A stretch of DNA of 64,000 bases from Chiloscyllium plagiosum (Eukaryota): contig NC_057752.1 of assembly GCF_004010195.1 (NCBI RefSeq), forward strand, positions 541,908 to 605,907, written 5' to 3'. A model generated the notes under the pieces. The model searched no databases. It saw only the letters and a list, made by a program, of their open reading frames with translations, and was not told the origin of the DNA. The position numbers were made by a program, and so were the translations under genes. This document shows, one piece after another, positions 1-50,916 of the stretch. Within the stretch, counting starts at the first letter, position 1. Each line of letters opens with the position of its first letter.

Positions 1-266
1 CCTGATCTCTCCACCCCCACCCCACTCCGGCCTATCACCCTCACCTTGACCTCCCTCCACCTATCGCAATTCCAACGCCCCTCCCCCAAATCCCTCCTCC
101 CTACCTTTTATCTTAGCCTGCTGGACACACTTTCCTCATTCCTGAAGAAGGGCTTATGCCTGAAACGTCGATTCTCCTGTTCCTTGGATGCTGCCTGACC
201 TGCTGTGCTTTTCCAGCAACACGTTTTCAGCTCTGATCTCCAGCATCTGCAGTCCTCACTTTCTCC
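1..266 (+). mobile_element. Penelope-like element terminal (pLTR) segment with hammerhead motif
   Basis: Ends ...CCTGAAGAAGGGCTTATGCCTGAAACGTCGATTCTCC...CAGCATCTGCAGTCCTCACTTTCTCC; the same segment recurs at 3443, 8336, 14860, 15843, 47245 and 50749. Confidence 0.75.
137..173 (+). ncRNA. Minimal type I hammerhead ribozyme motif (PLE-associated)
   Basis: CTGAAGA core, GGGC-TTAT-GCCT stem II, GAAA, palindromic ACGT stem III, GTC cleavage triplet; stem I is short and imperfect in this copy. Confidence 0.6.
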
Positions 267-268
267 TT

Positions 269-935
269 TTGTATTTGAGACAAGAGGAACCAGGGTCTGT
301 GCGTGAGACAAGAGGAACCAGGGTCTGTGCGTGAGACAAGAGGAACCAGGGTCTGTACTTGAGACAAGAGGAACCAGGGTCTGTATTTGAGACAAGAAGA
401 ACCATGGTCTATACTTGAGACAAGAAGAACCAGGGTCTGTACTTGAGACAAGAAGAACCAGGGTCTGTACTTGAGACAAGAGGAACCAGGATCTGTATTG
501 AGACAAGAAGAACCAGGGTCTGTACTTGAGACAAGAAGAACCAGGGTCTGTATTTGAGACAAGAAGAACCAGGGTCTGTACTTGAGACAAGAAGAACCAG
601 GGTCTGTATTTGAGACAAGAGGAACCAGGATCTGTATTGAGACAAGAAGAACCAGGGTCTGTATTTGAGACAAGAGGAACCAGAATCTGTATTTGAGACA
701 AGAGGAACCAGGGTCTGTATTTGAGACAAGAGGAACCAGGGTCTGTATTTGAGACAAGAGGAACCAGGGTCTGTATTGAGACAAGAGGAACCAGGGTCTG
801 TATTTGAGACAAGAAGAACCAGGGTCTGTACTTGAGACAAGAGGAACCAGGGTCTGTATTGAGACAAGAGGAACCAGGGTCTGTACTTGAGACAAGAAGA
901 ACCAGGGTCTGTCTTGAGACAAGAGGAACCATGGT
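269..935. repeat. Minisatellite, 28-29 bp unit (TGTA[T/C]TTGAGACAAGA[G/A]GAACCAGGGTC), about 23 copies
   Basis: Direct tandem array read from the sequence; explains the repetitive minus-strand ORFs at 108-944, 227-922 and 409-867. Confidence 0.95.
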
Positions 936-1519
936 CCAGATCATGTATTTGATTTGAGGAAGCTAGGGTCTTTGCAGTTAAGTAGCAATAATCCAGGGTC
1001 TTGCATGTCTATTGCCTGGAACCACCTAAACTATTTTTTGATTTAACTGAGGCTTAAACAACACCAAAACATATGCTGGAGGAGCTGGAACTGAATTTAT
1101 GTTTATGAGTATTAAAATGCCTGTGCTCTGTACACTGCCCCTTGTACACAAAGATCAAATTCAAATATAATTATTATTTGCTCATGGTTTTTCAATGATA
1201 AGGGCAATCATTAAAATCCTGTATGTAACGCACCACTTTAATTAACACAATGTTGTTAAATGGCAAAAGAACATTAGGAATTTGAAGGGAAAAAGGTCAC
1301 AAAGATTGCTGCATGTTCTCAGTGAGTGACCTCTCACTGAAAATAAACTGTGAAATTCTCCCTAATGAAGTTGTAGTAAATGTACTGCTCAGTGTGGTAC
1401 GATGACATTCAAAAACAGGAAGGTCTGAGGTTTCTATCCTTCAGTTGTCTTATGTTAACTGATTTTTTTTGACAGGATGGCAATTGGATAGCAACAATAT
1501 ACCTTTATAACATTACCTG

Positions 1520-2118
1520 TTCCACCACTACCTCAGCCCCTTGTCTGTACCCTCAGGCATAGCTTCATTACCTCCACACTTAACTGTTCCAGTGCACTCA
1601 CAGCTGACCTCCCATCTTTCACCCTCTGTAAACTTGAGGTCATCTGCAATTTCGCTGCCTGTCTCCCAACTCACTCCGAGTCCTGATCACCTCTCAACCT
1701 TATGTTAGTTGACCGACGTTTGCTCCTCATTAAAAAGTGCCTTAAATTTAGAAATCTCACGCTTGATTTCAAATTCCTTTCTGACCTCAACCCTTATTAG
1801 CTCTGTACCCTCCTCCAACCTCTGGGATCTCTGCACTTCTCCAACTCTGGCCTCCTGTGCATCCTGACTTTCACCACTTCACCATTGGTAAGCACACTTT
1901 CAGTTGCCTGGGCCCTAAGCTCTGGAATTCCCTCCTTAAACCTCTCACTTCTCTCTGTGTTCTCAAAGCATAAACTCTATTTCCTTGACCAAGCTTTTGA
2001 TCCCCTGGCCTAATATCTCTCTCTGTGACTCAGTGTCAACTTTCATTTCATAAAACTCCAGTAAAATGCCTTGGAATAGTTTACTGTGTTAAGGGGGCTA
2101 TATAAATGCAAGTCGTTG
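1520..2118 (+). mobile_element. Old L2-type LINE 3' fragment
   Basis: CCTAAGCTCTGGAATTCCCTCC motif and GCTATATAAATGCAAG tail typical of L2 3' ends; boundaries approximate. Confidence 0.6.
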
Positions 2119-2974
2119 GCAGTGGCAATCAAATTTAGGAGACAAACACAAATCTATGGCTGAACACTGCGTACATATGGGTATCAGATAAGAACAGAAT
2201 TATATTCAACTGCAGTGGCCCCAGTGGCATAATAGCCTGTCAAAGATCACTGTGAGGATTCATGCACAAAGGCTTGCTCCTTAAATGAGGGACAGAATGG
2301 CAGACACAGCTGTGAAACTGGACCCCATTAAATTGAGGAGGACGGAGGGGGAGAGTGCTACTGAAGAACGTAATGCTCTGTGGATTCTTAATGCAATGTT
2401 TCAACTTCACAGTGTGACATCCTGTCATTATCCTTAATTACTGAAAAAACTGCCTCCCTCTGTAATTTACACACAGAAAGAAGGAGCTATCTATAGCGCA
2501 ACCTTTACAAACAAGGAGCTTTTCTCCTTCGTCCACTGTTAACAGGTTACTGCACAAAACGCCAGCTTTGCCTACAAATGCAGTGCCACCTGTTAGAAGT
2601 GAACAATTCAGGACTTACAACTGGGGGAACAGCTCTGTCCCAACATAGAAAACAATAGATTCTTTCTTCACACTGGATTTCTCTTCTCAATAATGGAGTG
2701 GAAACAGGGGAAGCTGTGACTTGTAGGTCAATTTGACCATGCGGATTAATAATTGAAAGGCAGTACTAGGTATTAGACTGGAGATGATGAGATTGCAGTT
2801 TGCTTGTAAAGGAACTGCAAGTTTAGTAATTCCCCAGTATCTGCTTGGATGAGTAGCAACAAATACTTTGCATTGAAAATGAATCATCAATGCATTGGTT
2901 TCTTCAGTTGCGTTTGCATGTTTTATAACCCTTTCCTGACAGTTTCCTGGCCAAAGCCCAGTTGTGATCATTAG

Positions 2975-4200
2975 AGTTATAGAGTCATAGAGATGTACAG
3001 CACGGAAACAGACCCTTCGGTCCAACTCGTCCATGCCAACCACATATCCTAACCTAATCTAGTCTCATTTGCCAGTACTTGGCCCATATCCCTCTAAATC
3101 CTTCCTATTCATATACCCATCCAGATGCCTTTTAAGTGCTGTAATTGTACCAGCCTCCACCACTTCCTCTGACAGCTCATTGCATACACGCACCACCCTC
3201 TATGTGAAAATGTTACCTCTCACATCCCTTTTATACCTTTCCCTAATCCTATGCCATCTCGTTCTGGACTCTCCCACCCCAGGGAAAAGGCCTTGTCTAT
3301 TTATCCTATCCATGCCCCTCATGATTTCATAAACCTCTATAAGGTCACCCCTCAGCCTCCGATGCTCGAGGGAAAACAGCCCCAGCCTATTCAGCCACTT
3401 CATATAGCTTAAATTCTCCAACCCTGGCAACATCCTTGTAAAGCTGAAAATGTGTTGCTGGAAAAGCGCAGCAGGTCAGGCAGCATCCAAGGAGCAGGAG
3501 AATCGACGTTTCGGGCATGAGCCCTTCTTCAGGAACATCCTTGTAAATCTTTTCTGAACCCTTTCAACTTTCACAACATCTTTCCGATAGGAAGGAGACC
3601 AGAATTGCATACAATATTCCAAAAATTGCCTAACCAATGTTCTGCACAGCTGCAACATGACCTCCCAACCCCTGTACTCAATACTCTGACCAATAAAGCA
3701 AAGCATACCAAATGCCTCCTTCACTATCCTATCATCCTGCGACTCTACTTTCAAGGAACTATGAACCTGCACTCCAAGGTCTGTTTGCTCAGCAACACTC
3801 CCCAGGACTGTACCATTAAGTGTATAAGTCCTGCTCTGGTTTGCTTTTCCAAAATGCAGCACCTTGCATTTGTCTAAATTAAACGCCATCTGCTTCTCCT
3901 CAGCCCATTGGCCCATCTGATCAAGATCCCATTGTACTCTGAAGTAACCTTCATCGCTGTCCACTACACCTCCAATTTTGATGTCATCTGCAAACTTACT
4001 AACTATACTTCCTACATTCACATCCAAATGACGAAAAGCAGTGGACCCAGCACTGATCCTTGTGGCACTCCACTGGTCACAGGCCTCCAGTCTGAAAAGC
4101 AACCCTCCACCACCACCCTCTGACTTCTGTCTTAAAGCCAGTTCTGTATCCAAATGTCTAGTTCTCCGTGAATTTCATGAGATCTAACCTTGCTAACCAT
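2975..4200 (-). mobile_element. CR1 LINE, 3' part of ORF2 (RT) and tail, decayed
   Basis: ORF fragments SKFADDIKIGGVVDS, DLGVQVHSSLKV, LEYCMQFWSP, LGLFSLEHRRLRGDLIEVY; (GACTCTAT)-type tail near 2975-2990. Confidence 0.92.
3443..3533 (-). mobile_element. 91-bp Penelope-derived insertion with hammerhead motif, inside CR1
   Basis: Flanked by perfect 14-bp duplication AACATCCTTGTAAA (3429-3442, 3534-3547); minus strand reads CCTGAAGAAGGGCTCATGCCCGAAACGTCGATTC. Confidence 0.85.
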
Positions 4201-4787: not shown

Positions 4788-4854
4788 AGTACTTTTTGAA
4801 GTGCTGTTGCTATAGTTGTGTGGGAAACACAGCAGAGAATTTGTGCACAGCAAT

Positions 4855-5860: not shown

Positions 5861-5884
5861 GACATCCACAACCATCAGTGAATT

Positions 5885-8079: not shown

Positions 8080-8540
8080 TTAAAACAAAAACAGAAATTG
8101 CTGGCAAAACTCAGCAGGTCAGACAGCATCTGAGTTAATGTTTCGAGTCTGGTGACTCTTCACCAGAACTATTAGCAGCTCAGAAAAAGTGATATTTATG
8201 CTGAAGGTGAAGTTAGGGGATGGGGTAAGTGAGCAGATAGATGGAGATGGAGCTAAAGAGAGAGAGAGATAGGAGGGGGAGGTGGGAGGAGAGATAAATA
8301 AGACAATTAAGGATAGCAGGCTAGGACAAAAGAAAGTGAGGACTGAAGATGCTGGAGATCAGAGCTGAAAAATGTGTTGTTGGAAAAGCGCAGCAGGTCA
8401 GGCAGCATCCAAGGAGCAGGAGAATCGACGTTTCAGGCATAAGCCCTTCTTCAGGCTAAGACAGAAGAAAACCTGAATAAATGAAAATACGATTAAACAG
8501 TAAGAGAGAATGGATGAGCTGTACTGAAAGCAACCCTTCT
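8080..8540 (-). mobile_element. Penelope-like terminal fragment with a nested second PLE insertion (about 8336-8451)
   Basis: Inner copy flanked by imperfect duplication CAGGCTAGGACAAAAGAAA / CAGGCTAAGACAGAAGAAA; both carry CTGA..GAAAC hammerhead-like cores on the minus strand. Confidence 0.7.
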
Positions 8541-9854: not shown

Positions 9855-10580
9855 GGCCCCATGGTAGGGCCTTAAGGGGTGTAGTGAAACAGAGGGATCT
9901 TGGAATTCAGGTTCACAGTTCTCTGAAAGTGGAGTCCCAGGTGGACAGGGCAGTGAAGAAGGCTTTTGGCACACTGGCCTTCATCAGTCAGAGTACTGAG
10001 TAACGAAGCTGGAAAGTTATGTTGCAGTTATACAGGAAGTTGGTGAGGCCACACTTGGAGCATTGTGTTCAGTTTTGGTCACCTTGTTGTAGGAAGGATG
10101 TTATTAAACTGGAAAGAGTGCAGAAGAAATTTACAAGGATGTTGTCTGGACTCAATGGTCTGGGTTATAGGGAGAAGTTGGACAAGCGAGGACTTTTTTC
10201 TTGAGAGCGTAGGAGACTGAGGGGGTACCTTATAGAGGTGTATAAGATCATGAGAGACATGGATAGGGTGAATGCACTCAGTCTTTTTTCCAGGGTTGGG
10301 GAATGGAGGACTAGAGGGCATCGGTTTAAGGTTAGAGGGGAAAGAATAAAAGAGAACCTGAGGGGCAACTTTTTTACACAGAGGGTGGCACGCATATGGA
10401 ATGAGCTGCCAGCGGAAGTGGTTGAGGTGGGTACATTAACAACATTTAAAAGGCATTTAGACAAATACATGGATAGGAAAGGTTTGGAAGGAGATGGGCC
10501 AAGTGCAAGGAAATGGGGTTAGCGTGGATGGACAATTTGGTCAGCATGGACCAGTTTAGGCTAAAGGACACTATGACTCT
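9855..10580 (+). mobile_element. CR1 LINE 3' fragment
   Basis: DLGIQVHSSLKV, LEHCVQFWSP, RGHRFKVRG, NFFTQRVARIWNELP; near-identical subfamily copy at 16003-16750 (-). Confidence 0.92.
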
Positions 10581-12084: not shown

Positions 12085-12725
12085 AGTTCGTCAGAGATCG
12101 TTCCCTCCGGGACAACCTAGTCCACTCCTCCATCACACCTAACACCTCTCCCATCACACACGGCACCTTCCAATCACACCTAACACCTCTCCCATCACAC
12201 ACGGCACCTTCCCATCACACACGGCATCTTCCCATCACACCTACCACCTCTTCCATCACACATGGCACCTTCCCATGCAATCGCAGAAGGTGCAACACCT
12301 GCCCCTTTACCTCTTCTATGCTCACCATCCAAGGCCCCAAACACTCATTTCAGATTAAGCAGCATTTCACTTGTACCTCTTTCAATTTGGTCTATTGCAT
12401 TCGTTGCTCCCAATGTGGTCTCCTCTATATCGGAGAGACAAAACGCCGACTGGGTGATTGCTTTGCTGAGCACCTTCGGTCTGTACGCAATCAGGTCCCG
12501 GACCTTCCCATGGCTTGCCACTTCAACACACAATCCTGCTCCCATGCCCACATGTCTGTCCTTGGCTGCTGCAATGTTCCAGTGAAGCTCAACGCAAACT
12601 GGAGGAACAGCATCTCATCTTCCAACTCGGCCCGTTACAGCCTGCCGGTCTCAACATTGGATTCAACAACTTCAGATGATTATCCCATCTCGGGCCTTCT
12701 GTTTTCATTCTGCTCCGTAATTTTA
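12085..12725 (+). mobile_element. Penelope-like (Neptune-type) element, GIY-YIG endonuclease end
   Basis: TFPCNRRRCNTCPF Cys motif followed by NLVYCIRCSQCGLLYIGETKRRLGDCFAEHL. Confidence 0.88.
12130..12275. repeat. Local tandem amplification (CCATCACAC-based 20-21 bp subunits) inside the PLE
   Basis: CCATCACACCTAACACCTCTC and CCATCACACACGGCACCTTC alternate several times. Confidence 0.8.
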
Positions 12726-12834
12726 TTTATTTATTTTTATATATATTTCTTTCACTGTTCCGTACCTCTTATTTCTTGATTGTCTCTCTTTCTCTCGCTC
12801 CCCACTCTCCCCCACATATTTTGTCACATACCAC

Positions 12835-13992: not shown

Positions 13993-14177
13993 CCTGGGAC
14001 TTTTCCAAAGCTCCACTCCAGTTTTATGAAGCAAATATTACTGAGTGTTTTTCAGCTCCCACATTCGGCTTAACTGAAGTATTAATGCTTACTGGCTCCT
14101 TCCAAGCTTTCCTCCAACACAATCGATCACCTTCCCACTTTGACTCCAACCCTTAACTACTTTGTCATTTCTGTCAG

Positions 14178-14480
14178 AACGCTGACTGGGTGATCGCTTT
14201 GCTGAGGACCTTCGGTCTGTACGCAATCAGGTCCTGAACCTTCCCGTGGCTTGCCACTTCAACACACAATCCTGCTCCCATGCCCACATGTCTGTCCTTG
14301 GCTGCTGCAATGTTCCAGTGAAGCTCAACGCAAACTGGAGGAACAGCATCTCATCTTCCGACTAGGCACGTTACAGCCTGCCGGTCTCAACATTGAATTC
14401 AACAACTTCAGATGATTATCCCATCTCGACCCCTCTGTTTTCATTCTGCTCTGTAATTTTATTGTATCTTTTCCAGCATT
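14178..14480 (+). mobile_element. Second copy of the Neptune-type PLE 3' segment
   Basis: About 95% identical to 12442-12725 (about 14 mismatches counted by eye). Confidence 0.85.
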
Positions 14481-14609: not shown

Positions 14610-15225
14610 TCAGCTGTGACTGCATAAGTAGCACTTCTGCCTCTGAGTCAGAAGATGGTGGATTCAGATTCCACTCCAGTGACATAAACATATCATCTAA
14701 ACTTTGGCGTAATGCAGTACTGAAGGAGTGCTGCACTGTCAAAAGTGCTATCTGTCAGATAAGATATTAAACAAAGGCCCTATTTGCCTTCTGCCAGTCA
14801 TATAAAAGATCTTGTTTGAAATGGAGAACTGTTCTTCCTGGTATCCTGAGCAATGCAGCATCAGGAATCCATTCCTGATGAAGAGCTCTGGCCCAAAATG
14901 TTGATTCTCCTGTTCCTCGGATGCTGCCTGACCTGCTGTGCTTTTCCAACAACACACTCTTGACTCTGATCTCCAGCATCTGCAAACCTCACTTTCTCCT
15001 AACATCATCAGTGAGCCTTTAGATGAAGCGCTGGTGGTATGGCCTGCTTTCTATTTATGTGTTTAGGTTCCTTGGGTTGGTGATGACATTTCCTGTGGTG
15101 TTTCCTACATTACCTCACTGCCGTGTTTCCTACATTATAATATCACACTTCAAAAGTACTTCATTGGCTGCAAAATGTTTTGAGATATTCTGAGATAACG
15201 AAAGGCATGATAGAAATACAAGTTT
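14610..15225 (+). mobile_element. DeuSINE-like element split by PLE fragments (about 14857-15000 and 15020-15100)
   Basis: tRNA-like head, Deu core, TTTCCTACATTA...AAAGGCATGATAGAAATACAAG tail; inserted PLE begins with fold-back CATCAGGAATCCATTCCTGATG. Confidence 0.65.
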
Positions 15226-15842
15226 TTAATTTCTCCCCTCCGTCACTATGCATGCAAGGAATTAGTTTGATATTCACCTCTTCAGGAAATATACAACCAG
15301 TCATAAATACAGAAGGCTAAAAATATCTAGAATTTTCAAAAAGTACAGAAACCATGGAAAAGTAAAAACCTGCATTGTACATGGATGTACCAGAGATGAT
15401 GCTAATCATATCTGAATTTAATCATCACAGGGTAATGACCCAATGAAAATTACAGGCTGACAGCACAAGGAAACATTTACATAATGCGTAAAAATAGAAG
15501 ATTACATTCCATGGCACCGGCATTAATACTTCATAGGATACCCAATAGCAAACAAAATTACTTTCCAAATGCTTCACAAAATATGGCAAGACTTCTCAAA
15601 CTGGGCATTGGGACTCCAAGGTGAGTTTGTGAGTTGAGATTTTGCGATCACAATGGCTAGCACCCCCTTTTTACCCCACTCTCACCGGTCTTCTCTACCA
15701 CACCTCTGCTTTGCTCGGTTTTCTCCTCGCACTTCTCAGGTTTTACCAAAGAGCCATGACAATTGTCAGTCCTTGATATGAGGGAAAACATTTGGGGAGA
15801 ACTGAAGTACAGATTAGTAAGTAGAGGTCTATAGGGCTGACT

Positions 15843-15967
15843 AGGAGAAAATGAACACTGCAGATGCTGGAGATCAGAGTTGAGAGTGTGGTGCTGGAAA
15901 AGCACAGCAGGTCAGGCAGCATCCGAGGAGCAGGAGAATTAACATTTCGGGCATAAGCCCTTAATCA
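15843..15967 (-). mobile_element. Short Penelope-derived insertion with degenerate hammerhead motif
   Basis: Flanked by GGCTGACT duplication; same segment as 141-266. Confidence 0.75.
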
Positions 15968-16002
15968 GGCTGACTGTAGAACTTTGCAGGGAAAGAATGA
16001 TG

Positions 16003-17470
16003 TCATAGAGTCACAGAGACATAGGTGCTGCAGCATTGAGACAGGCCCTTTAGCCCAAACTGGTCTATGCGGACCAAATGTCCACCCACAGTAACTCCAT
16101 TTCCCTGCACTTGGCCCATCTCCTTCCAATCCTTTCCCATCCATGTATTTGTCCAAATGCCTTCTAAATGTTATGTACCCGCCTCAACCACTTCTGCTGG
16201 CAGTTCATTCCATATGTGTATCACCCTCTGTGTAAAAACGTTGTCTCTCAGGTTCCCTTTTATTAAATCCCCTCTAACCTTAAACTGATGCCCTCTAGTC
16301 CTCCATTCCCCAACCCTGGGAAAAAGACTGAGTGCATTCACCCTATACATGCCTCTCATAATCTTATACACCTCCATAAGGTACCCCCTCAGTCTCCTAC
16401 GCTCTAAAGAAAAAAGTCCTCGCTTGTCCAACTTCTCCTTATAACTCAGACCATTGAGTCCAGGCAACATCCTTGTAAATTTCTTCTGCACTCTTTCCAG
16501 TTTAATAACATCCTTCCTACAACAAGGTGACCAAAACTGAACACAATACTCCAAGTGCGGCCTCACCAACTTCCTGTATAATTGCAACATAACTTTCCAG
16601 CTTCTATACTCAATGCCCTGTCTGTCTGTGACTCTACTTTCAGAAAACTGTAAGCTTGAACTCCAAAATCCCTTTGTTCCATTACATTCCAAAAGGCCCT
16701 ACCATTCACCATGAAACTCCTACCTTTATTTGACTTTCCCAAACGCAACACCTCTCACTTATCCATATTAAACTTCAATTGCCATTTCCTGGCCTGCTTC
16801 CGCAGCTGATCAAGGTCCTGCTGCAATTTCTGATAACCTTCCTCACTATCCATGATACCGCCTGTTTTAGTGTCATCAGGAAACTCACTAATCATGCCTT
16901 GTATGTTCTCATCCAAATCGTTGATATAGATAACAAATAGCAATGGGCCCAGCAATGATCCCTGAGGCACTCCACTAGTCACAGGCCTCCAGTCCAACAA
17001 ACATCCTTCCACTATTACCCTCTGCTTCCTACCATCAAGCTAATTTTGTATCTAATTTGCCAGCTCACCTTGGATTCCATGAGATCTAACCTTCCAAAGC
17101 AGCCTACCATGTGGAACCTTATCAAAGGCCTTACTGCAATCCATATAGACTACTGCCCTGCCCTCATCAACCTTCCTGGTCACTTCATCAAAGAACTTTA
17201 ATAAACTTATGAGGCATATTCTCCCATGCACAAAGCCATGCTGATTGTTCCTAATCAAACCTTGGCTTTCCAAATGCATGTATATCTTATCCTTCTGAAT
17301 CTTCTCAAGTAACTTATCTACTACAGATGTTAGGCTTACTGGTCTATAGTTCCCAGGCTTTTCTTTGCAGCCTTTCTTAATTAATGGCACAACATTCGCT
17401 ACCCTCCAGTCTTCCGGGATTTCAACTGTGGCTAATGATGATGCACAAATATCAGCTAGGGCCCCCGATA
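16003..17470 (-). mobile_element. CR1 LINE ORF2 RT region and tail, decayed
   Basis: [61 protein letters not shown]. Confidence 0.93.
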
Positions 17471-20254: not shown

Positions 20255-20795
20255 TCTTTCCACAAGATGTACTGCAGAAATTCACCAAAGATCCTCAGAC
20301 AGCACCTTCCAAAACAACAACCACTTCCATCTGGAAGGACAAGTGCGTAGATACATGGGAACACCACTGCCTGCAAGTTCACCTGACCATCCTGACTTGG
20401 AAATATATTGTGAAGAGAAAGCAGAGTTAACATTTCAGGTCCAGTGACTGTCACTCAGAATGGTTCTGAAGAGGTTACACTGGACCCAGAATGTTAATTC
20501 TGCTTTCTTTCCATGTATGCTGCCAGATCTGTTGAGTTTTTCCAGGAATTTCTGTTTTTGTTTCTGATTTCCGCCATCTGCAGTTCTCTGGTATTTTGGG
20601 AAATATATTGGCTTTCCTTCACTGTCACTGGGTCAAAATGCTGGAATTCCCTCCCAAAGGGCATTGTGGATCTACCTGCAACACATGGACTACAGCAGTT
20701 CAATAAGGCAGCTCATCACTACTTTCTCAAGGGCAACTTAGAAAAGGCAATAAATGCTGGCCAGCCAACTATACCCACACCCAACAAGTGAATTG
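20255..20795 (+). mobile_element. LINE 3' fragment interrupted by a fold-back PLE insertion (20411-20598)
   Basis: Same family as 18830-19250; insertion flanked by 12-bp GGAAATATATTG duplication. Confidence 0.75.
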
Positions 20796-20899: not shown

Positions 20900-22085
20900 T
20901 GTTCAGACTCTACCATTATTAAATTTGATATTGAGTCCTGAAGGCTGCAGGGTCCTCAAGTGGGAGATGAGATACTGATCTTCTAGCTTGTGCTGAACCT
21001 CGCTGGAATAGTGCAACAGGTTCAACACAGAAATGTGTTGGTGGCATGTTGAAGTGGCAGGCAACGGAAAGCTGGGGGTCATTTTTAAGGACAGAACATA
21101 GGTGTTCCGCAAAGCAGTCACCCAGTCTGTGTTTTGTCTCCCCCATGTAGAGAAGTCTGCATTGGGAACGAGGAATACAGTAGAATAGATTGAGTGAAAT
21201 GCAGGTAAATCGTTACTTTACCTGGAAGGTGTGTGTGGGGCCTTGGATAGTGAGGAGGGAGGTGGTAAGCAGGCAACTGTTACACCTTCTGTGATTGTAT
21301 GGGAAAGTGGGGAAGTGTTGGGAGTGGAGGAGGAGTGGACCTGGGTACCCTGGAGGGAATGTTCCCTCATAGAATCATAGAATCCCTACAGTGTGGTAAC
21401 AGGCCCTTTGGCCCAACAAGTTCACACTCACCCTCTGACGAGTAACCCACCCAGACCCATTCCCTACTCTATTATCCTATATTTACCCCTGACCAATGCA
21501 GCTAGCCTACACATCCCTGAACACTACGGGAAAACTTAGCATGGCCAATTCACCTAACCTGCACATCTTTGGACTGTGGGAGGAAACCGGAGCACCCGGA
21601 GGAAACCCACGCAGATAGGGGAGAATGTGCAAACTCCACACAGATAGTCGCCCACGGCTGGAATCAAACCCAGGTTCCTGGCGCTGTGAGACAGCAGTGC
21701 TAATCACTGGGCCACCTGGCAACCCCTGTGGAAACAAAAATAGAAATTGCTGGAAAAACTCAGTGGGTCTGGCAGCATTTGTGGAGAGAAATCAAAGTTA
21801 ACATTTCGGGTTGAGTGACCCTTCCTCAGAAATGTGCAATCCCTGTGGAATCCCTGCAGAATGCTGACAATGGAGGGGAGCAGAATATGTGTCGTCCCAT
21901 TGGAGGTGGCAGCTTATGATCCTTTGGTTGCAGGGGCCAGCAGGGTGGATATTGAGGACCAAGGGGTCGATATTGAGGACCAAGGGGTCCCCATTGTTGT
22001 GGGAAGGAAGAGAAGGGGTGAGGCCAAACATGCAGGAAATGGATTGGACAAGGCCAGACAGGTGGAACACCTGCAATGTTCTGAT
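20900..22085 (-). mobile_element. Neptune-type PLE fragment, interrupted by a SINE and a PLE terminus
   Basis: MGETKHRLGDCFAEHL..VACHFN GIY-YIG segment, homologous to 12270-12680. Confidence 0.78.
21369..21720 (-). mobile_element. HE1-like tRNA-derived SINE with CR1-derived tail
   Basis: Minus strand has A/B boxes GGTGGCCCAGTGATTAGCA...GGTTTGATTCC, body TGTGTGGAGTTTGCACATTCTCC, tail GGATTCTATGATTCTATG. Confidence 0.88.
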
Positions 22086-25074: not shown

Positions 25075-25114
<40 letters not shown>

Positions 25115-26146: not shown

Positions 26147-26335
26147 CATAGAATCCCTACACCGTGGAAGCAGGCCATTCAGCCCATTGAATCCTGCTGA
26201 CCCTCTCCCACCCAGACCCACCCATTTACCCTATAACCCTGCATTCCACATGGCTAATCCACCTAGCCTTCACATTCTTAGATACTATGAGCAATTGAAC
26301 ATGGGCAATTCATTTAACCTTTGGACTGTGGGAGG
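26147..26335 (-). mobile_element. HE1-like SINE, 3' half (split by the Gypsy element)
   Basis: Ends TTGGACTGTGGGAGG; continues at 32595 as AAATGGGAGC..GGAAACCCA. Confidence 0.8.
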
Positions 26336-26970: not shown

Positions 26971-27070
26971 GACTGAGGGCTCTTTGTGGAATTGTAAACA
27001 GCGAGTGGTAGGTGCTAGCGTATTTATTTCGGGTGTTGGTTTGGTTGGGTAGACAAAGCTCAGGATAGTA

Positions 27071-28320
27071 ATGGCTCTTTCAGTCGACAGAAGTTTTCTG
27101 GATGTGGATGCGGTGACTTTGGAAGTTTAGCAAAAAGTGAATAAGACCAAGTTGCAAGAATTAGCAGAGAAGCTGGAATTGGAACTGCCTGCTTCTGTGA
27201 GGGAAGGGGAGATAACTACAGCAGTAGCTCATCATTTAAACTTGCTGGAGAAACCATCAGAATCTATAGAGATGGCAAGAATTCAATTGCAAATGAAGCA
27301 GCTTGAGTTAGAGGCAAGAGATAAGAAAGGTCGGCAGAAATGAAACAGTTTGAGTTACGATTAAAAGCAGAAGAGAAAGAAAAAGAGAGAGCTTTTGAAC
27401 TTTAAAAACTGACACTTGAAAAGGAAAGTCAGCTTAAAAGGCTGGAGATAAAGGCTGAAGGTAGGCTTAGTGAGGATGAGCAAGCCCCTGGTAGTCAGAG
27501 GCCTAGTGAGAAACTGTTTAAGTATGTTCAAGCATTGCCTCAGTTCAATGAAAAGGATGTGGAAGCCTTTTTCATCTCATTTGAAAAGGTGGCTAAACAA
27601 ATGCAGTGGCCAGTGGCAATGTCGGTTTTGTTGATCCAAACGAAACTTGGAGGCCGGGCTAGTGAGATATTCGCATCCCTCTCAGAGGAGGTATATGGGG
27701 AGTGTGAGGAGGTGAAAAAAGCCATTTTAAGTGCATATGAGCTTGTGCCAGAAGCCTATAGACAACGTTTCAGCAATCTAAGGAGGGACCCTGGTCAAAC
27801 CTACATTGATTTTGAAAGGTTCAAACAGAGTGATGTTGATAGATGGATAAGAGCTTTAAAAATAGAGCAAACCTATGATGCCCTTAGAGAGGTAATTATT
27901 TTGGAGGCATTCAAAAATTCATTGACTGAAGTAGTGTGAACTCATGTGGAAGAGCAGAGAGTTAAAACAGCAAGGTTAGCAGCTGAAGTGGCTGATGGTT
28001 ATGAGCTGGTCCATAAACCACGGTTTGGCTTCCAGAATCAATTTCAGTCCATGAGGGATAGAAATTGGGGCAAAGAGAAATCCTCACGTGGAAAGGGAAA
28101 GGTAGATCTCAGTGAAAATCATATGGATAACTTACCACAGGATAAGAAAAGAAACCTTGAGGAGGACAAAGAAGTTAAAAAGCTCCAGTGTTTTCATTGT
28201 AATAAAGTGGGCCACACAAAATCACAATGTTGGTGGGCTAAGAGAAAGGCAGATGTCGGAAAACCAGACAAGCCTGGAAGTTTTGTTGGACTAGTAACAA
28301 AAAGCACAAGGGGAACTTAG
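27071..28320 (+). pseudogene. gag remnant (capsid/SCAN-related region and CCHC knuckle)
   Basis: PQFNEKDVEAFFISFEKVA..VKKAILSAYELVPEAYRQRF; CX2CX4HX4C; in-frame stops. Confidence 0.85.
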
Positions 28321-28324
28321 ACAA

Positions 28325-28760
28325 ATGCCTCAGAGTGTACAAGATGTTCAGAGCTTGATCAAGGAGGAAGTGCCAGATTTGCTTAAAAAATACACATGCA
28401 AGGGTAAAATTTATCCACATACGCCAGGAGTAATAGGTAAGGAGGTTACAATATTAAGGGACACAGGATCCTCTCAGTCTGTAATGCTGAAGGATGAGGA
28501 GTTATGCACTCCTGAGGGACTATTGCCAGAAAAGGTACTGGTAACAGGAATTCATGGTGAGACAAAAAGTGCTTAGTTATGTAAAGTGAGGCTAGAGAGT
28601 CCAGAGAAGAGTGGAGAATTTGTGGAAGGAGTACTGGACAAACTCTCAGCTCCAGGGATACAATTTGTCCTTGCAAATGATATAGCTGATTCACCAGTAA
28701 ACGTGCTGCCTAATCTAGTTGAAAAGCCAGTGGAGACGTAGGTAACTGAAAACATGGAGA
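28325..28760 (+). pseudogene. Aspartic protease remnant
   Basis: VTILRDTGSSQSV active-site motif and FVLANDI; internal stop. Confidence 0.8.
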
Positions 28761-29130
28761 ATGTTTATCCAGGAATTTTCCCTGATTGTGTGATCACAAG
28801 ATCACAGAGGCACAAGCTGAAGCAGGAGGGACCAAAAGGCACAGATAAGGAAGCTGACATAATGTTATCTGAAACTTTCTTTGATCAGATAAGTGGAACA
28901 GAGAAGGAACAAATAGGTAAACATGCAAGCTTCTTGAGCTCTACTAAGCTGATTGAATTACAGCAGAAAATGAGGATTTAAAACAGTTATATCAAAAGGC
29001 ACTTACTGAGATTGAAAGTGAATGCATTCCTGTGTGTTATTACTTTGCAAATGATGTCTTTATTACACATTCAAGGAGACCATCACACATTCAAGCAGAT
29101 GAGTAATGGGCAGAGATTCATCAAATTGCT

Positions 29131-30190
29131 TTGCCAGTAGGGTATAGAAAGGAGATGGTGCGAGTGATGCATGAGCTACCACTTGGAGGTCATTTAGGGG
29201 TGAGGAAAACACAGGCTAAAATACAAAAACATTTTTACTGGCCTGGAATACACAAAGATGTAGTTGAATTTTGCCAGATGTGTCATACATGTCAGCTAAT
29301 CGGAAAACCACAGGCAGTAATGAAACCTGCATCTTTAATACCTATTCCAGCATTTGAGGAACCTTTCACAAGAGTCTTGATTGATTGCGTAGGTCCCCTA
29401 CCTCAAACAAAAAGTGGGAATAAGTATTTATTAACAATAATGGATGTGTCAACTAGATCTCCAGAGGCAATCCCATTATACAACATCACAGCTAAAAGGG
29501 TTGTAGAAGAACTACTTAAATCCTTTACTAGATATGGACTACCAATAGAGATCCAGTCAGATCAAGGATCAAACTTCACATCCAAACTATTCAAGGAGGT
29601 TGTGGATAACTTGGGAACAAAGCAATTCAAATCTACTGCGTACCATCGAGAATCGCAGGGAATGCTAGAGAGATGGCATCAAACACTAAAGACCATGTTA
29701 AAGGCTCATGGTCAGGATTATCCAGATGATTGGGATAAGGGAGTTCCGTTTGTACTTTTTGCGATCAGAGATGCTCCAAATGAATCAACCAAATTCAGTC
29801 TGTTTGAATTAATTTTTGAGCATAAAGTAAGAGGATGGTTAAAATTGGTTAGGGAGAAATTAATAAGTCAGAATTCAGAGACCACCCATTTGGACTATGT
29901 GTCAAATTTTAGAGAACGATTAAATAGAGCTGGAGAGTTGGTTAGACAGTATTTAAAAGTATCACAGCATACAATGAAAAAGAAGCAGATAAGAAATCAC
30001 AAATTCGCAATTTTGCAATTAGGGATAAGGTATTGGTGTTACTTCCAGTAACAGGTGAGCCTTTAAAAGCAAGGTTTAGTGGACCGTATCAAATTGAGAA
30101 GAAATTGAGTGAAAGTGAACTACTTGATAAGGACTCCAGACAGGAAGAAATCTCACAGTGTGTCATGTGAATGTCCTCAAAAGGTATTCT
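29131..30190 (+). pseudogene. Integrase remnant
   Basis: HELPLGGHLG..CQMCHTC (HHCC), IDCVGPLP, IQSDQGSNF, LERWHQTLK, GPY motif near 30080. Confidence 0.92.
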
Positions 30191-30427
30191 GATAGGGAAG
30201 GAAAGCAAGAGGAGAAGGTGTTCATGATTACAGCACAGAAGGAAGAGCCAAGTTCAGAGGATTCTGAATTGGACATTCCTCAAATCAAATTGGACAATGA
30301 GGAAATTGTCAAAAATTGGGATAAATTATTGAGTTACCTTCCACAAAAAAATTGAAATGACCTGAAAGAGTTATTACTATCACATGGAGAGATATGCAGA
30401 AATAAACTGGGAAGTACTAACCTAATT

Positions 30428-31770
30428 GTGCATGATGTAGATGTAGGAGATGCTGTTCTGATTAAACAACATCCTTATAGGCATAACCCTCTAAAGTTGG
30501 CACAGGTTCAGAAGGAGATAGAGCACATGCTCCAAGATGGCATAATCGAAGTGAGTTACAGTGACTGGAGCTCACCCAAAGTCATGGTGCCAAAGCCAGA
30601 TGGTACCCAATGGTTATCTGTGGACTATCGCAAGGTCAACACCGTTACAAAGACTGATGCATATCCAATTCCACGGTTGGAGGACAGTGTTGAAAAAGTG
30701 GGACAAGCAACTTACATTTCTAAGTTGGACTTGCTCAAAGGCTACTGGCATGTACCTCTGTCAGAGAGCAAAGGCAATTTCGGCTTTCATAACACCAACT
30801 GGACTATATCCGTTCAAGGTCATGCCATGTGGTGTGAAAAACGCTCCAGCCACATTTCAGAGACTGACTAATAAGGTCATTGCCGGTTACCCAAGTGTGT
30901 GGAATATATTGATGACCTGGTGATTTTTAGTAGTCATGGAAGGAACATTTACAGCATTTATCGGACTTGGTTCAATTGACTTTGGAAGGCAGGCTTGGTA
31001 GTAAACCTAGCTAAAAATGAATTTGCCAAAAACCCAAGTCACATTCCTGGGCCATGTTATTGGACATGGACAAATGGCCCCACAGGATGTGAAAATGAAA
31101 GTAATTGGGGAATTTCCCACACCATTAACGAAAATTGCTGTACTACAGTTCCTGGGTCTGAGTGGATTTTACTGAAGGTTTATGCCGAACCTTAACAGTG
31201 TGGCTGGTCCACTCACTGAATTGTTAAAAAAGGGCAAGACGTTTCATTGGACAGTGGACTGTCAAATGGCATTTGACAGCCTAACCGAACACCACACTCT
31301 TGACTGTAATCTCCAGCATCTGCAGTACTCACTTTCCTCTAAAATCTGTGTTAACCACTGCCCCGATATTAGCCACACCAGATTACAAGGTGGCTTTCAA
31401 GGTGGTTATCGATGCCAGTGATGAGGGTGTCAGTGCGGTGCTCCTGCAGGAGGATGACAAAGGAATAGAAAGACCCGTCGGGTATTTTTCCAGGAAGTTG
31501 AACGTTCATCAACAGAAATATTCAATGGTGGAGAAAGAGACTTTAAGCTTGGTGTTAGCATTACAACATTTCAGTGTTTATATTACCAGCAACGCATTGA
31601 GACAATTGTACACACAGAACACAACCCATTGACATTTGTGGAAAAATTTAAGGACAAAAATGCCAGACTTTTTAGATGGAGCTTGTTGTTGCAGCTATTC
31701 AATTTGACAACTGTGTATGTTGCAGGTCGCAAAAACGGGATTGCTGATGCATTATCGAGACACGAATGAG
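30428..31770 (+). pseudogene. Reverse transcriptase and RNase H remnant
   Basis: WSSPKVMVPKPDG..VDYRKVN, KLDLLKGYWHVP, MPCGVKNAPATFQR, YIDD near 30905, IDASDEGVSAVLLQ, EKETLSLVLAL, ADALSR; frameshifts. Confidence 0.92.
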
Positions 31771-31946
31771 ATATGGAGGCATTTGGTGGTGGCTGTACCA
31801 TGGCCTGAATTTGTATGTATTTGTACGTTTGCATGTTTACAGTTAGTATAGAGTATATATGTGTTTAGACTCCTAACCAGTTCTGGAAGGGTTAAAAATG
31901 AAGCCATCTTTTGGTATTGATGGTTCTATTTTTTAAGGGTGGATGG

Positions 31947-32590
31947 TGTCACAAAGCTAGTCCCTTTTTTTTTCTCAGAATTGTTCCTTGGTTCAAGGAG
32001 ACTCAGTCCTTGATATTTTCAGAGGGGTAATAAACCGGGCCAGGCTCCAATCAGTTTGATTTGGTCCAGAGATGAAAAGGATTTTGAAAGGCCTTTTGTT
32101 TATATGTAAACAGATGAGACTTCAGGCTAAAGTGGTCATGTTTTAGAAGTGACCTGTATAAACAAAGGAGAGTGGTCAGGTATCTAGCTGAGCTGAGCAG
32201 TTTAATTCAGTCTTGAATTTGTTGGACGTTCAACAGGGAGCTGTGTGGAAACTCTCTCTTTTCTGCCCTTCAACTTCAACCTGTAAGCATGTGTTCCATT
32301 TATACTGGTTTTTAAAGGCATTTTGTTTCTTGGGATTGTTGTGTATATTCGGAACAGCATAATTAAGTCCAGTTGGATAGGTTGAGTTCTGTAGGAGTTC
32401 TTTATTCTGTTCTTTGTGTTTCATTGTGTAATTCTGTGAATACATTTTTGTCTGTTTTAAAATCTATTAGTCAACCTAGATAACTTAATCTGGGTAATTT
32501 TAGCTGTACACTTACCGAAACAAATTGCAACATTATAGTCTGAGCTGCCTGCTTAAGAATGTTTTGAGTGGTCTGGCTTAGTCCATAACA
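31947..32590 (+). repeat. 3' LTR (644 bp)
   Basis: Preceded by purine tract AAGGGTGGATGG; direct repeat of 26336-26970. Confidence 0.93.
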
Positions 32591-32594
32591 GAGG

Positions 32595-39389: not shown

Positions 39390-40380
39390 TCAAGAATTGT
39401 ACAGCACAGAAAGTGACCCTTTGGTCCAACTCGTCCATGCTGACCAGATATCCTGAATTAATCTAGTCCCATTTACCTGCATTTGGTCTATATTCTTCTA
39501 GTTGAAACTTTATTGCTGGAACAGCACAGCAGGTCAGGACCCTTTGGTCCAACTCGTCCATGCTGACCAGATATCCTGAATTAATCTAGTCCCATTTACC
39601 TGCATTTGGTCTATATTCTTCTAAACATTTTCTATTCCTATGCCCATCCAGATGCCTTTTAAATGTTGTTGTCATTGTACCAGCCCCCACCACTTCTGGC
39701 AACTCATTCCATACACGCACCGCCCTCTGTGTGAAAAAGTTGCCCTCTAGTTCTGGCCTCCCCTGCTGTGGGGAAAAAGGTCTTGGCTATTCACCTTATC
39801 CATGAACCTCATGACTTTATAAACCTCTAAGATCACCCCTCAGCCTCCGATGCTTCAAGGAAAATAGCCCCAGCCTATTAAGCCTCTCCTTATAACTCCA
39901 ACTGTCCAAACCTGGCAACATCCTTGTAAGTCTTTTCTGAACCCTTTCAGGTTTCACAACACCTTTTCCTGTAGCAGGGAGACCAGCATTGAACGCAGAA
40001 TTCCAAACGTTGCCTGACCAACGTCCTGTACAGTTGCAATATAATCTACCAATTACTATACTCCTACACTAGCCAATGTAGGTAAGTGTACAAACGCCAC
40101 CTTCACTATCCTGTCTACATTTGACTCCACCTTCAAGGAACTATGAACCTGCACTCCAGGGTCTCTGTTCAGCAACACTCCAGGGCCTACTTGGAGTATG
40201 TGTCCTCGCCTGATTTGCCTTGCCAACAGGCAACATCTTGCATTTATCTAAATTGAACTCCATCTACCACTCCTCGGCCCATCTGATTAAGGTCCCATTG
40301 TGCTCTGAGATAAACTTCTTCACAGTCCAATTTTGGTGTCACCTGCAAACTTGCTACAAATTCCTCCTATATTCATATAT
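39390..40380 (-). mobile_element. CR1 LINE 3' fragment with internal 86-bp duplication
   Basis: Homologous to 2975-4030; 39415-39500 repeated exactly at 39538-39623. Confidence 0.85.
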
Positions 40381-46717: not shown

Positions 46718-49320
46718 TGATGTACTACTAGGCACAGAGGCATCCTTTGTTTACTTGTGTACAGTATACTGGCTGTGGTCAGCCAGCTCTGAGTTACCCC
46801 CCCTGAATTGAAGAGATTCTCAGTCCCCTGTTAATATTGTTCAGCCAGGGCTTCCTGATTGGGTTTGTTAACCTGGGACAACCGAGGATCATGTAATCAA
46901 CACGATTCACTTGGTTCAGGCGACTAAGTTCTCTCCACTCCTCTTGCCCGCCTTGGCTGGACTGTAGCCTGTCTCTTGTGTCTGGAGTGTCTCATGAGAA
47001 TTTCCTCCCCTGCCTGGCAGCGTAGAGGCTGCATCCATCTCTGACTCTGAAGTTTCCTTGACGCTAGACGGAGATGGAGAACCTGTGGTTTCCAACACTC
47101 CTTCTGGCTGTTCGGAGGGAGCAGATGTGTTTCACTCCTGCACAGTTTGCGAGGTAACAGCTTTCAGTTGATACATAAAGTTTGTTTAGGACCACTTTGC
47201 CTACCTGAATTTTTGTAAGTCATGAGACCTGACCTCATTAATCTTGGAGACAGTCAGGACTGCACATGCTGGAGATCAGAGTGCAGTGCTGGAAAGTCGA
47301 TATTTCGAGCATTAGCCCTTCATCAGGAATAATTTCTGATGAAGAGTTATGCTTGAAATGTTGACTCTCACTCCTCAAATGCTGCCTGACTGGTGCTTTT
47401 CCAGCACCGCACTCTTTGACTTGCATTAATCTCATTTGCCTTATACCCACACAGGGCTGTTTTCATGGTTCCAGCACCAAACTTGGTTCACCCCAAATTA
47501 AATTGTTTCTCAGGCTTAGAGGAGGCTTGTAGCCAGTATTAGCATTCCTGATGTTGTTTCACAACCACCACCCACCCCCCCTGCTCTAGGAATATTAGCA
47601 TTAATCTGGTGCAGAGTAGTCTTTCCATCAACAACTCTGCTGGAGCTATCCCTGTTGTTGTGTGAGAGTGGTCTTATAATTGAACAGGAACCAAGACAGT
47701 TTGGTATCAAGTGACACAATACGCTGTTGCTTTAAGCCTGCTTTCAACGTTTGGGCGGCTCTTTCTGCTAGACTATTGCATGATGGATGGTGTGGAACTG
47801 TCCTTTCTGTGCCAAAAACTATTCGACTTCAGGAAATACTCACATTCCCTGCTGGTAAATGATATCCCTTTGTCCATGCTCAATACTTCCGGGAGTCAGT
47901 GTATTGCAAGTTATGCTTGCAGCTTCTCCATAGTTATCCCTGAGTTTGCTGAGTGGACTTTATGCACATCTAACCACTTTGGCCATTCATGATGACTGGG
48001 AACATTGAGCCCATGAAAGGACCAGTATAGTTGATCAAGTCAAAGGTTTACCTGGCCATTCTCATAAATGTGGGGCCACTGCTGGTGGCAACTTTTATCC
48101 TTTATTGACAATCTGGGCACTGCCCCACCAATGTACCTATGTTGGCATCCAACTCTGGCCAACAGACATGGCTTCTTGCTAGCATCTTCAGGGGTTTTCA
48201 AGATGGAGTTCAGCCAGTATCTGGCAGTGACCTTTCACTCTGGATAACCACCCTTGCTCTCCAAAGTAACAGGTCAACCTGTCTGGTGATCTGGTTTCAC
48301 CAGGTCCAGAAAACTTTTAATCCTGGTTGTGATGGCCCGCTACCTGCCCCATTACAACCAGCTGTTTTAATTTTGTTCAGACTGGATCTTTGTGTCCACC
48401 GTCTAATATCGTCAGTGATGACTGGAAGAGTGTTCAGAAAGTTTAAAACTGGAATGGACTCTTCGAGTGATGACACCACCAGTGGAGTAACTCAATGAGA
48501 GGTAGCTCAAGGCATCACTTGACTTCCTGGACTGTTCTAACTTTACCTCTATGCACTGAGAGCAAGGGCCCAACGCTGAATTCTACCAGAAACTGTGGGT
48601 GGCACTGCTTTGTCTTCAGTAGCCCTAGCAGGGGTTTGTGATCTGTTACTGTAATAAATTCCTGCCTGTAAAGGTACTGTTAGAACTACTCCACAACAAA
48701 ATGACTGCCAAATCTACCTTCTCTGGGCATATTTACATTCAGCATCAGCTAAAGTCTGGGAAGCATACACTTGGGCCACTGGTGAGTCAATACCTCCCTA
48801 ATATCGTACAGCACTACCTCTCGCTTCAGATTGTAGTGAGCCAATGCCTCAGATGACAGCTGCTTCACTTCCCTGAATGCTACTACTTGGCTACGTGACC
48901 ATTTCCAAGGCTGACCCTTTTTCAATTGCAGGTGTAAGGGTGCCAAGATGGAGGTCGGGCTACGTATGCATTTTCCATAATAATTCTGGGGTTCCTTTGG
49001 TTGCCCTCACTTTATCTTCCAACAAGTGTAACCTCGTTTTGTGACTGTAACCAAAGTAGGTCACTTAGGGTGCCTGGAACACACACTTTTCCCTTTTATT
49101 TTTAAGGCATACATCCACTTGGGAGAAATGCTTAAGCACTATATCCAAGTTCTCTCTTCATTGCTCTTTCTGGTTGTTAGCACATCATCCAGGTAAATGG
49201 CAATTTGGGGTAGCCCTTGGAATGTTCTCTGTGGTCTGCTGGAAAAGGACGAAGCTGATGATACCCCAAATGGCAGTCTTGTACAGAGGAACCTCGATTA
49301 TGCAAACGAGATGGGCAGGC
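46718..49320 (-). mobile_element. Decayed Gypsy element (partial pol plus 3' LTR) in a CDK4 intron
   Basis: Minus strand AIYLDDVL near 49180-49203, LAPLHLQLKKGQPWKWS..LAHYN, LNTLPVITDDIRRWT; LTR-like segment at about 46718-46905 related to 13764-13992; boundaries approximate. Confidence 0.78.
47245..47423. mobile_element. Fold-back Penelope-derived insertion with two inverted hammerhead cores
   Basis: 9-bp TSD CATTAATCT; centre CTTCATCAGGAAT-AATTTCTGATGAAG. Confidence 0.8.
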
Positions 49321-49890: not shown

Positions 49891-50177
49891 TCAATATTGT
49901 AACACCCCTTGCCTGAAGATTCTATACACTGGAATATTGAACTGCCAGTCCTGTCCTTAGTCAATCATGTTTCTGTTATAGCAATGATACCATATTCCCA
50001 TGTGTAATCATCTCCCTTATTCACAAGGCTCCTTGCATTAAAATAAATGGCCACCAAGCCTTGCTCCCTTATGCCTTGACCTGACTATGTATACTCTACC
50101 TTCCACACTGACTTTGAGTTTTCTATATTTATGCATCACCCCTTGCTGTAACTGCCTGTCCTTCCTTGTTGCTGCAG

Positions 50178-50313
50178 GTTGTTTGACGTGTGTGCGACAA
50201 TGAGAGCAGACAGAGAAACTAAGGTCACTTTGGTGTTTGAGCATGTCGACCAGGATCTGAAAACTTATTTGGAGAAAGCACCGTCACCTGGCCTACCAGC
50301 TGAAACAATCAAG
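50178..50313 (+). CDS. CDK4: CDK4 coding exon 2 (136 nt)
   Basis: (R)[51 protein letters not shown] acceptor, GTAAAA donor; absent from the ORF track. Confidence 0.95.
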
Positions 50314-50524
50314 GTAAAAAGCAAAACTGTCTGACTATTTGAGGCAAGCCTACTGTTTCTTTGACCCTTATTCCAGCCATGTACTAGAAAAGAGGGTGTG
50401 TCAGATGAGGCTATAGTGATGTTCGCTGACCCATAGATGGGACAGGTGACTTCTTAAAAAAAAAAAATACTGTTGAGAGTTCAGGGAGTGTACTTTGATG
50501 TCACTGCTGAATTGACTTGAAATG

Positions 50525-50641
50525 GAATTAAGGGCTACGGGGAGAATGCGGGTAGGTGGAGTTGAAATGCCCATCAGCCATGATTGAATGGCGGAGTAGA
50601 CTCGATGGGCCGAATGGCCTTACTTCTGCTACTATGTCTTA
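50525..50641 (+). mobile_element. Short CR1-type 3' tail insertion
   Basis: GAATGGCGGAGTAGACTCGATGGGCCGAATGGCCT..TATGTCTTATG tail, flanked by TGAAATG duplication. Confidence 0.7.
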
Positions 50642-50748
50642 TGAAATGAAAAATGTCCAATTCTCCTTTTTGTTTAAAAAAACAAGTAGTAACTGAAATA
50701 TGAACAGAAATATTGGACATGCATAGCAAATCAGTCAACATCTGTGGT

Positions 50749-50916
50749 GAGTGGAGTGTGTGGTGTTCGAAAAGTGCAGCAGGTCAGGCAGCATCCTGAA
50801 GGGTTTATGCCCGAAACATCTATTCTGCTCCTCAAACGCTGCCTGACCTGCTGTGCTTTTCCAGCACTGCACTCCATTCTGATCTCCAGTATCTGCAGTC
50901 TTCACTTTCTCCTAGG
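50749..50916 (+). mobile_element. Penelope-derived insertion with 5' inversion
   Basis: 9-bp TSD ATCTGTGGT; inverted arm 50749-50793 abuts CCTGAAGGGTTTATGCCCGAAAC. Confidence 0.8.

Follow-up and report, generated by a model that had tools for sequence, protein, structure and literature searches.

Short insertions that carry a minimal hammerhead ribozyme motif recur in a 64,000-nt stretch of the Chiloscyllium plagiosum genome (contig NC_057752.1, positions 541,908 to 605,907; hereafter the window). As judged from sequence, the 130-nt unit of this family (family A) belongs to an autonomous Neptune-type Penelope element that we pieced together from partial copies, and is its pseudo-long terminal repeat (pLTR), i.e. 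the repeat at the 5' terminus. Copies comprising this repeat only, here called stubs, were probably made by reverse transcriptase (RT) that was primed at +130 and about +95 of the unit and ran off a linear, uncut RNA at its 5' end, the predicted start of this RNA being +1. The class of element and its parts are known, and the literature covers most of the architecture; what is new is the quantitative case for stubs that end at the RNA 5' end and for priming of both target strands on one RNA.

Positions are numbered from the A of TCATTCC (window position 138), which is +1; window position 267 is +130, the long 3' end. The hammerhead core CUGAAGA (142-148) begins at +5 and the predicted cut follows C169 (+32). 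A single oriented copy is called an arm, and two head-to-head arms within one insertion are called a pair.

Ends of the copies and the parent element

Copies were counted in a fixed-position grid on contigs C1-C22, made up of 160 stretches each 10 kb long (1,541,652 non-N bases); the first 0.97 Mb of this grid gave 238 profile matches compared to 0 in reversed sequence. Arms were scored against 68 natural long references; 327 passed the filter and 298 were scored, the remaining 29 (19 of them long) being left out on account of N, an edge or the limit of the reference. Scoring recovered as long 37 of 40 copies that had been called long independently in an all-against-all comparison; the other three are inverted pairs that entered the panel and slightly dilute the counts given for these 40 copies. 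The density in the grid was 212 arms and 158 events per Mb, and the genome is 3.56 Gb; as a rough extrapolation there would therefore be several hundred thousand insertions genome-wide, provided that the grid is typical.

The original prediction held that the 5' breakpoints of the family form a sharp peak, and in the grid an even spread was excluded, with 76 of the 298 scored arms beginning at -3 to +4 (20 at +1, 19 at +2 and 14 at +3) compared to 4 at -30 to -11. A further 48 arms began at or upstream of -31 and 16 at -10 to -4. Downstream of the peak the counts were 48 at +5 to +11, 24 at +12 to +21, 19 at +22 to +31, 26 at +32 to +41 and 37 beyond. The profile has a cliff on its upstream side and decays downstream, and the 168 arms with at least 90% identity gave a histogram of like shape with 0 arms at -30 to -11. 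Long arms made up about 20% of the total once those left out were counted, and about 80% of arms consist of the 5' repeat only.

A single fixed 3' end, as had been proposed, was not observed. Among grid arms at least 90% identical to a reference, 82 of 185 had an end 0-1 nt from +130, whereas in 66 of 185 the end fell 31-41 nt earlier, and solo arms were split about evenly between the two sites (46 and 48 of 97). Three of the nine main arms in the window, i.e. the copy at 3443-3533 and two inverted arms (47332-47421; 50749-50796), stop at about +95, 35 nt short of the long end. Both +130 and about +95 are internal ends, as known for the two RT start sites and the tail of the Anolis Poseidon element. 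The earlier proposals of an internal RT start, located about 98 nt beyond the cut site, and of copying across that site were right; the latter needs uncut (or rejoined) RNA. Target-site duplications (TSDs) were 8-21 bp overall, and were found in 49 of 80 pairs (12-21 bp) compared to 1 of 240 in the null. Copies that include the start of the open reading frame (ORF) must have been read through a 5' repeat. In 20 such copies, comprising the best 12 and the best 8 non-self matches of two lists, 11 began at -1 to +12, 6 began at +21 to +99 and 3 ran upstream.

Many of the 30 best matches run upstream into a pyrimidine-rich untranslated region (UTR), and longer copies contain a 3'UTR, a GIY-YIG domain, a Cx4Cx2C linker and an RT domain upstream of the unit. 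The RT assignment is based on a match to RVT_1 in L055 (E = 1.9e-6; 28.2 bits, slightly below the 29.6 cut-off) together with sequence motifs, and that of the C-terminal GIY-YIG domain on matches to PF01541 in L053 (E = 1.3e-4) and L060 (E = 2.7e-4). Cx4Cx2C precedes the endonuclease (EN) in translated EN-bearing copies and is absent from family C, a related family described below. Four copies (L034, L124, L202 and L072) extend beyond +130 into the beginning of the ORF, with an ATG near +165. As the unit lies between the 3'UTR, GIY-YIG and RT sequences on one side and the ORF start on the other, we conclude that it corresponds to the pLTR, and that the Penelope origin originally proposed is right. 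Partial tandems of the pLTR, inverted 5' copies, one-sided tails and TSDs were found among L034, L124, L202 and 83 grid pairs. BLAST matches of at least 50 nt in the grid numbered 267 for the core, 31 for the UTR, 28 for EN, 7 for RT and 2 for the ORF start.

The minimal hammerhead motif was also correctly recognized, by its sequence; Rfam gave no hammerhead match at E <= 5. We picked 141 family A copies by the core motif, which all of them therefore contain by construction. The bulged A was present in 140, the first pair of stem II was GC in 120 and GT in 18, and GUC was present in 97, the other copies having mostly CpG-type changes. Helix I, which has 4-5 bp in minimal hammerheads, keeps three of four pairs here, the third pair being a U-U mismatch in 124 of 141 copies; in family C the helix I pairs differ from those of family A yet hold. 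Co-folding of a dimer did not yield a clean double hammerhead. A total of 18 ends fell at +33 to +38 compared to 40 in 22 flanking positions (p = 0.057), for an interval that was chosen post hoc and with N-adjacent arms kept. In A1 junction copies a hairpin around +130, with its 3' strand past that position, could be folded in 11 of 12 cases (about -11 to -17 kcal/mol); it is absent in A2 copies, shows no covariation and is not established.

Paired arms

We found 134 pairs, 83 of them in the grid. With the 45 pairs containing an arm cut short beyond +21 left out, both arms began upstream of -25 in 18 pairs and near +1 in 67, and 4 pairs were mixed. A search for hidden partners among the solo arms added two more mixed cases and several in which both arms were long. 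For the grid pairs with hidden partners, the corresponding counts were 8, 42 and 3 (p = 4e-7). If RT were subject to a chance stall at each pass, mixed pairs would be common; as few were seen, we conclude that the outcome is set by the RNA molecule. One mixed pair (L142:8979-9609) is flanked by a 16-bp TSD; its short arm starts at +1, and the long inverted arm to which this is joined shows several template jumps. With respect to 3' ends, 76 of the 83 grid pairs had one long and one short end, 1 had two long ends and 6 had no long end, compared to 41, 19 and 23 expected from the split of the solo arms. The stem II loop was identical between the arms in 30 of 32 young pairs.

The best explanation for the paired shape is that two primers were extended on one RNA, one per cut strand. 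An alternative that concerns the head-to-head shape only, and that we regard as unlikely, is that one cDNA folds back and copies itself, followed by loss at the centre of the palindrome. Self-priming has been suggested for the structure of Penelope-like elements (PLEs) (PMC3846280). Fold-back would also yield identical, coupled arms, and palindromic junctions are common. However, the arm with the short 3' end reaches >5 nt further 5' than the long arm in 32 of 74 grid pairs, so that neither is contained in the other. In 4 pairs the long arm spans only +85 to +94 through +130 and abuts the second arm exactly at about +90, and the solo copies use either 3' end about equally.

Unlike short pairs, ORF-bearing copies, including L283, L284, L287 and L300, frequently have an inverted arm whose end is +130 and not +95 (4 of 6). 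Such an arm may stem from priming in the 5' repeat, the 3' repeat having served the first primer.

Origin of the stop at +1

The coupled arms, the starts of ORF-bearing copies, a TATA-like word in the sister family B and the lack of a pile-up in family C together lead us to conclude that the stop at +1 belongs to the template, most likely as run-off at the transcription start. The TCATTCC at +1 fits the initiator (Inr) consensus. In the 40 long copies of family A the base at -1 was a pyrimidine and that at +2 was a T in every case, and the T at +2 is invariant although its helix I partner mismatches. A TTTAT island at -35 to -27 was kept in the long copies listed. Family B (128 arms) has the same spacing as family A, with AGTT at +1. 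Its best TATA-like word started at -32 to -30 in 9 of 11 long copies whose upstream sequence is C-rich compared to 1 of 38 others; on visual inspection, most of the latter start at AGTT or immediately past it. Family C is of Poseidon type (loci include L087, L124, L135 and L253), with a hammerhead, an ATG at stem II, a TATA box at -49 to -44, 3' ends at about +78 and +112, and head-to-head pairs. Only 4 of its 37 scorable arms began at -10 to +21 compared to 164 of 298 in family A (p = 1e-7), many long ends being limited by the reference.

Transcription start sites have been reported inside the pLTR in Drosophila Penelope and Chlamys (PMC2377424; PMC8557442). By eye, there was no match to the downstream promoter element spacing of Drosophila Penelope. 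A splice acceptor at +1 was considered and rejected, as no AG is found ahead of +1 and the short copies have no common upstream exon. No RNA records were present among the matches listed for the element. Single-cell poly(A) runs were available for one sample; X19 contained 2,384 matching reads, on both strands, 92% of which continued into unlike sequence, and X20 contained none. The X19 reads revealed no site where many molecules begin, and such reads are no test of start site or expression.

Several observations weigh against run-off at a transcription start. The TATA-like word of family A is weak, being the best match of the scan in only 12 of 34 cases. An extra G before +1, a mark of the cap, was present in 16 of 33 cases compared to 27 of 73 controls (p = 0.29). 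In addition, +1 is the base of helix I, and an end trimmed to the fold would therefore look alike. None of the 37 family C arms began at -34 to -11, where the start of that family is predicted; as its TATA box is not accompanied by stubs at this start, run-off from the 5' repeat is not general. There are two clear mixed pairs (L142 and L269), an adjacent TSD was found in only 14 of 63 solo short copies (null, 1 of 189), and copies inside subfamilies are not independent.

It is conceivable, albeit rather improbable, that a longer RNA was trimmed by a 5'-3' exonuclease, or cut, back to a folded or protein-bound hammerhead, which would make +1 a processed end. Trimming accounts equally well for the cliff, the coupling of the arms and the starts of ORF-bearing copies, and it agrees with the position of +1 at the base of helix I and with the cap G result. 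It leaves the combination of TATA at -30 and an Inr-like word at +1 in family B unexplained, however; moreover, helix I has only 3-4 bp and is mismatched in most family A copies, and the family C hammerhead is not associated with a pile-up.

The original prediction had RT stalling, or switching template, at the ribozyme fold in every pass. The peak is indeed <=4 nt from the core, and some ends lie inside stem II with microhomology. This proposal is nevertheless largely refuted and, in our estimate, very unlikely to be correct: from the pair counts, about 16 of 53 pairs should be mixed if stalls were independent, whereas 3 were seen; RT would encounter the 3' side of the fold first, but the peak lies at its far, 5' side; and the hammerhead of the Poseidon-type family C is without a peak in the comparison given above.

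Least probable of all is the remaining proposal, a small non-autonomous retrozyme that replicates via circular RNA: copies do cross the cut site, retrozymes derive from pLTRs (bioRxiv 10.64898/2026.07.22.740005), and L124 and L202 are short tandems with two pLTRs, but the 130-nt unit does not form arrays (547 arms have 16 same-strand neighbours at a distance of up to 400 bp), spacers of ORF start and UTR separate the pLTRs of the two related tandems, a circle would have no end at +1, where ORF-bearing copies also begin, 33 short and 11 long copies intermix on a tree rather than forming a separate lineage (8 changes; shuffled mean 10.1; >=6 forced), and the hammerhead is minimal rather than canonical type I and unmatched in Rfam. 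The two tandems (L124:2134-2750 and L202:1504-2138) are single insertions in which the pLTRs are spaced 334 and about 375 bp apart, respectively. They were made by template jumps, and could be raw material for retrozymes. A full-unit circle is one possible source of the 3 of 20 copies that contain more than a unit; tandem read-through or strand transfer would serve equally.

For run-off from an uncut linear RNA, we envisage that +1 would be the RNA polymerase II start, with TATA at -30 and an Inr, that a protein would cut both target strands with a stagger, that both target ends would be primed on one RNA, one at each start site, and that the two cDNAs would be joined head to head via microhomology. 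Priming in the 5' repeat would lead to stubs, like integrated strong-stop DNA, and priming in the downstream repeat to long 5'-truncated copies. The hammerhead would be a passenger that is uncut in the templates actually used. A fuller version, which we offer only tentatively, is that one R-ORF-U3-R RNA serves a protein dimer for priming both cut strands, at sites 35 nt apart, so that a single step makes both the inverted copy and the one-sided tail. Integrated strong-stop cDNAs from priming in the 5' repeat would then end at a TATA/Inr start 4 nt before the hammerhead, the promoter would be restored only by the minority of more-than-unit templates (3 of 20), and the slightly raised number of ends at +33 to +38 would be a fossil of in vivo cleavage. 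In the Anolis Poseidon element PAc, the tail corresponds to two internal start sites, cutting and extension take place on both strands, and uncut RNA is the main substrate (PMC11167929).

The origin of the partial tandems, inverted copies and tails of Penelope elements and the role of their hammerheads have been called undefined (PMC8557442). Our literature search, which lay outside Repbase, subscription journals and supplements, found no report of run-off stubs at a PLE start site, of twin priming by PLEs or of cartilaginous fish PLEs with a hammerhead. If the run-off explanation is true, several hundred thousand insertions provide position-exact predictions, namely an RNA start at +1, two coupled priming sites and an uncut ribozyme in the templates used. 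Most solitary minimal hammerheads in such genomes would then be stubs left by run-off and not retrozymes, and their proper annotation would be as ends of PLEs.

Copies and other features of the window

The seven copies originally listed were all present and share the common segment (Table 1). TSDs of at least 8 bp were found in 5 of the 6 testable copies (17, 12, 8, 9 and 13 bp), in keeping with the claim that most copies have them; the copy at 14857-15000 has only 6 bp. Six of the seven begin or invert at about -1 to +9 as described, except that these breakpoints are at the 5' edge of the ribozyme, past the whole fold. The list was incomplete in that two family A fragments (31288-31340 and 39500-39538) and sister-family copies at 8083, 20463, 21732 and 54203 were overlooked.

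Table 1. Family A and family B features, by window position; signed numbers are relative to +1
Feature	Position	Strand	Remarks
Family A 3'UTR upstream of +1	1..137	+	Co-linear with L030, L008 and L040, which continue into GIY-YIG and RT; assembly gap precedes window
TATA-like AT-rich island CTTTTATC	105..112	+	-33..-26; putative weak TATA element
Inr-like TCATTCC	136..142	+	A138 = +1, 5'-end pile-up; ATTC doubles as helix I 5' strand
Minimal type I hammerhead motif	138..173	+	Core 142-148, bulged A 149, stem II 150-161, GAAAC-GUC, predicted cut after 169
Copy 1, pLTR +1..+130	138..267	+	3' end = long start site
Short copy +2/+4..+95 (short start site)	3442..3535	-	TSD 14-17 bp; sits in CR1-like long interspersed element (LINE)
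Short copy +4..about +127	8331..8455	-	TSD 12 bp
Inverted 10-nt stub (+1..+10), then copy -1..+130	14859..15001	+	Repeat only 6 bp, no clear TSD
Short copy +4..+130	15842..15969	-	TSD 8 bp
Head-to-head pair	47242..47423		Minus arm +130..+94 joined to +44..+1; plus arm +1..about +95; TSD 9 bp
Head-to-head pair	50749..50916		Minus arm about +95..+50; plus arm +9..+130; TSD 9-13 bp
Family A fragment, 3' part only	31288..31340	+	TSD sought, none found
Family A fragment, middle part	39500..39538	-	
Family B copy	8083..8200	-	CATAAATA at -30 (8200-8193), AGTT-CUG at +1
Family B head-to-head pair	20415..20564		
Family B short copy	21732..21831	-	
Family B short copy, begins at AGTT	54203..54305	+	

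The upstream sequence of copy 1 reaches the start of the window, where an assembly gap begins, and 3 bases past its 3' end a 28-bp tandem repeat begins (24 copies, 270-936). Another Neptune-like Penelope family is represented by GIY-YIG-end fragments at 12087-12727, 14175-14463 and 20916-21309, with a 20-bp internal tandem and no Pfam match. CR1-like pieces at 9985-10567 and 16047-16624 are inverted, 5.5 kb apart and 92% alike, closer than other CR1 copies of the window. A Gypsy-type long terminal repeat (LTR) element at 26328-32592 has two LTRs that are 87% alike, integrase pieces and a broken pol. A GC-rich segment at 24586-25116 has open frames on both strands (the minus frame without a Pfam match) and a 53-base A run at its end, and is perhaps a processed insertion. 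An exon matching Pkinase (E = 1.9e-11) is located at 52640-52760, and part of the window may be intronic; by its motif the exon would be that of a CDK4/6-like kinase.

Relation to known systems

In LTR elements, minus-strand strong-stop DNA arises by internal priming near the RNA 5' end and run-off, and in L1 twin priming a second primer gives the inverted arm. Unlike in either process, the products described here would be target-primed and directly integrated, and their arms usually overlap in sequence, requiring strand displacement or a second repeat.

The parent element shares with EN-positive Neptune PLEs the RT with C-terminal GIY-YIG, a linker Zn-finger, partial tandems of the pLTR, the inverted 5' copy, a one-sided 30-40 bp tail, TSDs and heavy 5' truncation (PMC8557442; PMC3846280). 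The tail of those elements has been ascribed to EN resolution or self-priming (same sources). Unlike in the published elements, about four-fifths of arms here are the 5' repeat only, ending at one base. With PAc it shares two internal RT starts about 35 nt apart, and would share extension of both target strands and an uncut RNA template (PMC11167929). The ORF of PAc starts at stem II and its start sites are inside the ORF, as in family C, whereas the start sites of family A are in the 5'UTR, before the ATG, and its hammerhead occupies the extreme 5' end. That paper does not describe the use of two start sites in pairs, as seen here.

As in the minimal hammerheads of metazoan PLEs, the predicted family A motif has the core, a bulged base after position 9, G10.1-C11.1 and a palindromic ACGU, and is mostly solitary (PMC4209133); its helix I would likewise be short, and its stem II differs in having only 4 bp. 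Non-LTR retrozymes likewise have a type I hammerhead, pLTR ancestry and small size (PMC7229834; bioRxiv 10.64898/2026.07.22.740005). Unlike these, family A has a minimal ribozyme, forms neither tandem units nor a lineage of its own, and has ends that would be set by the RT starts and the RNA 5' end.

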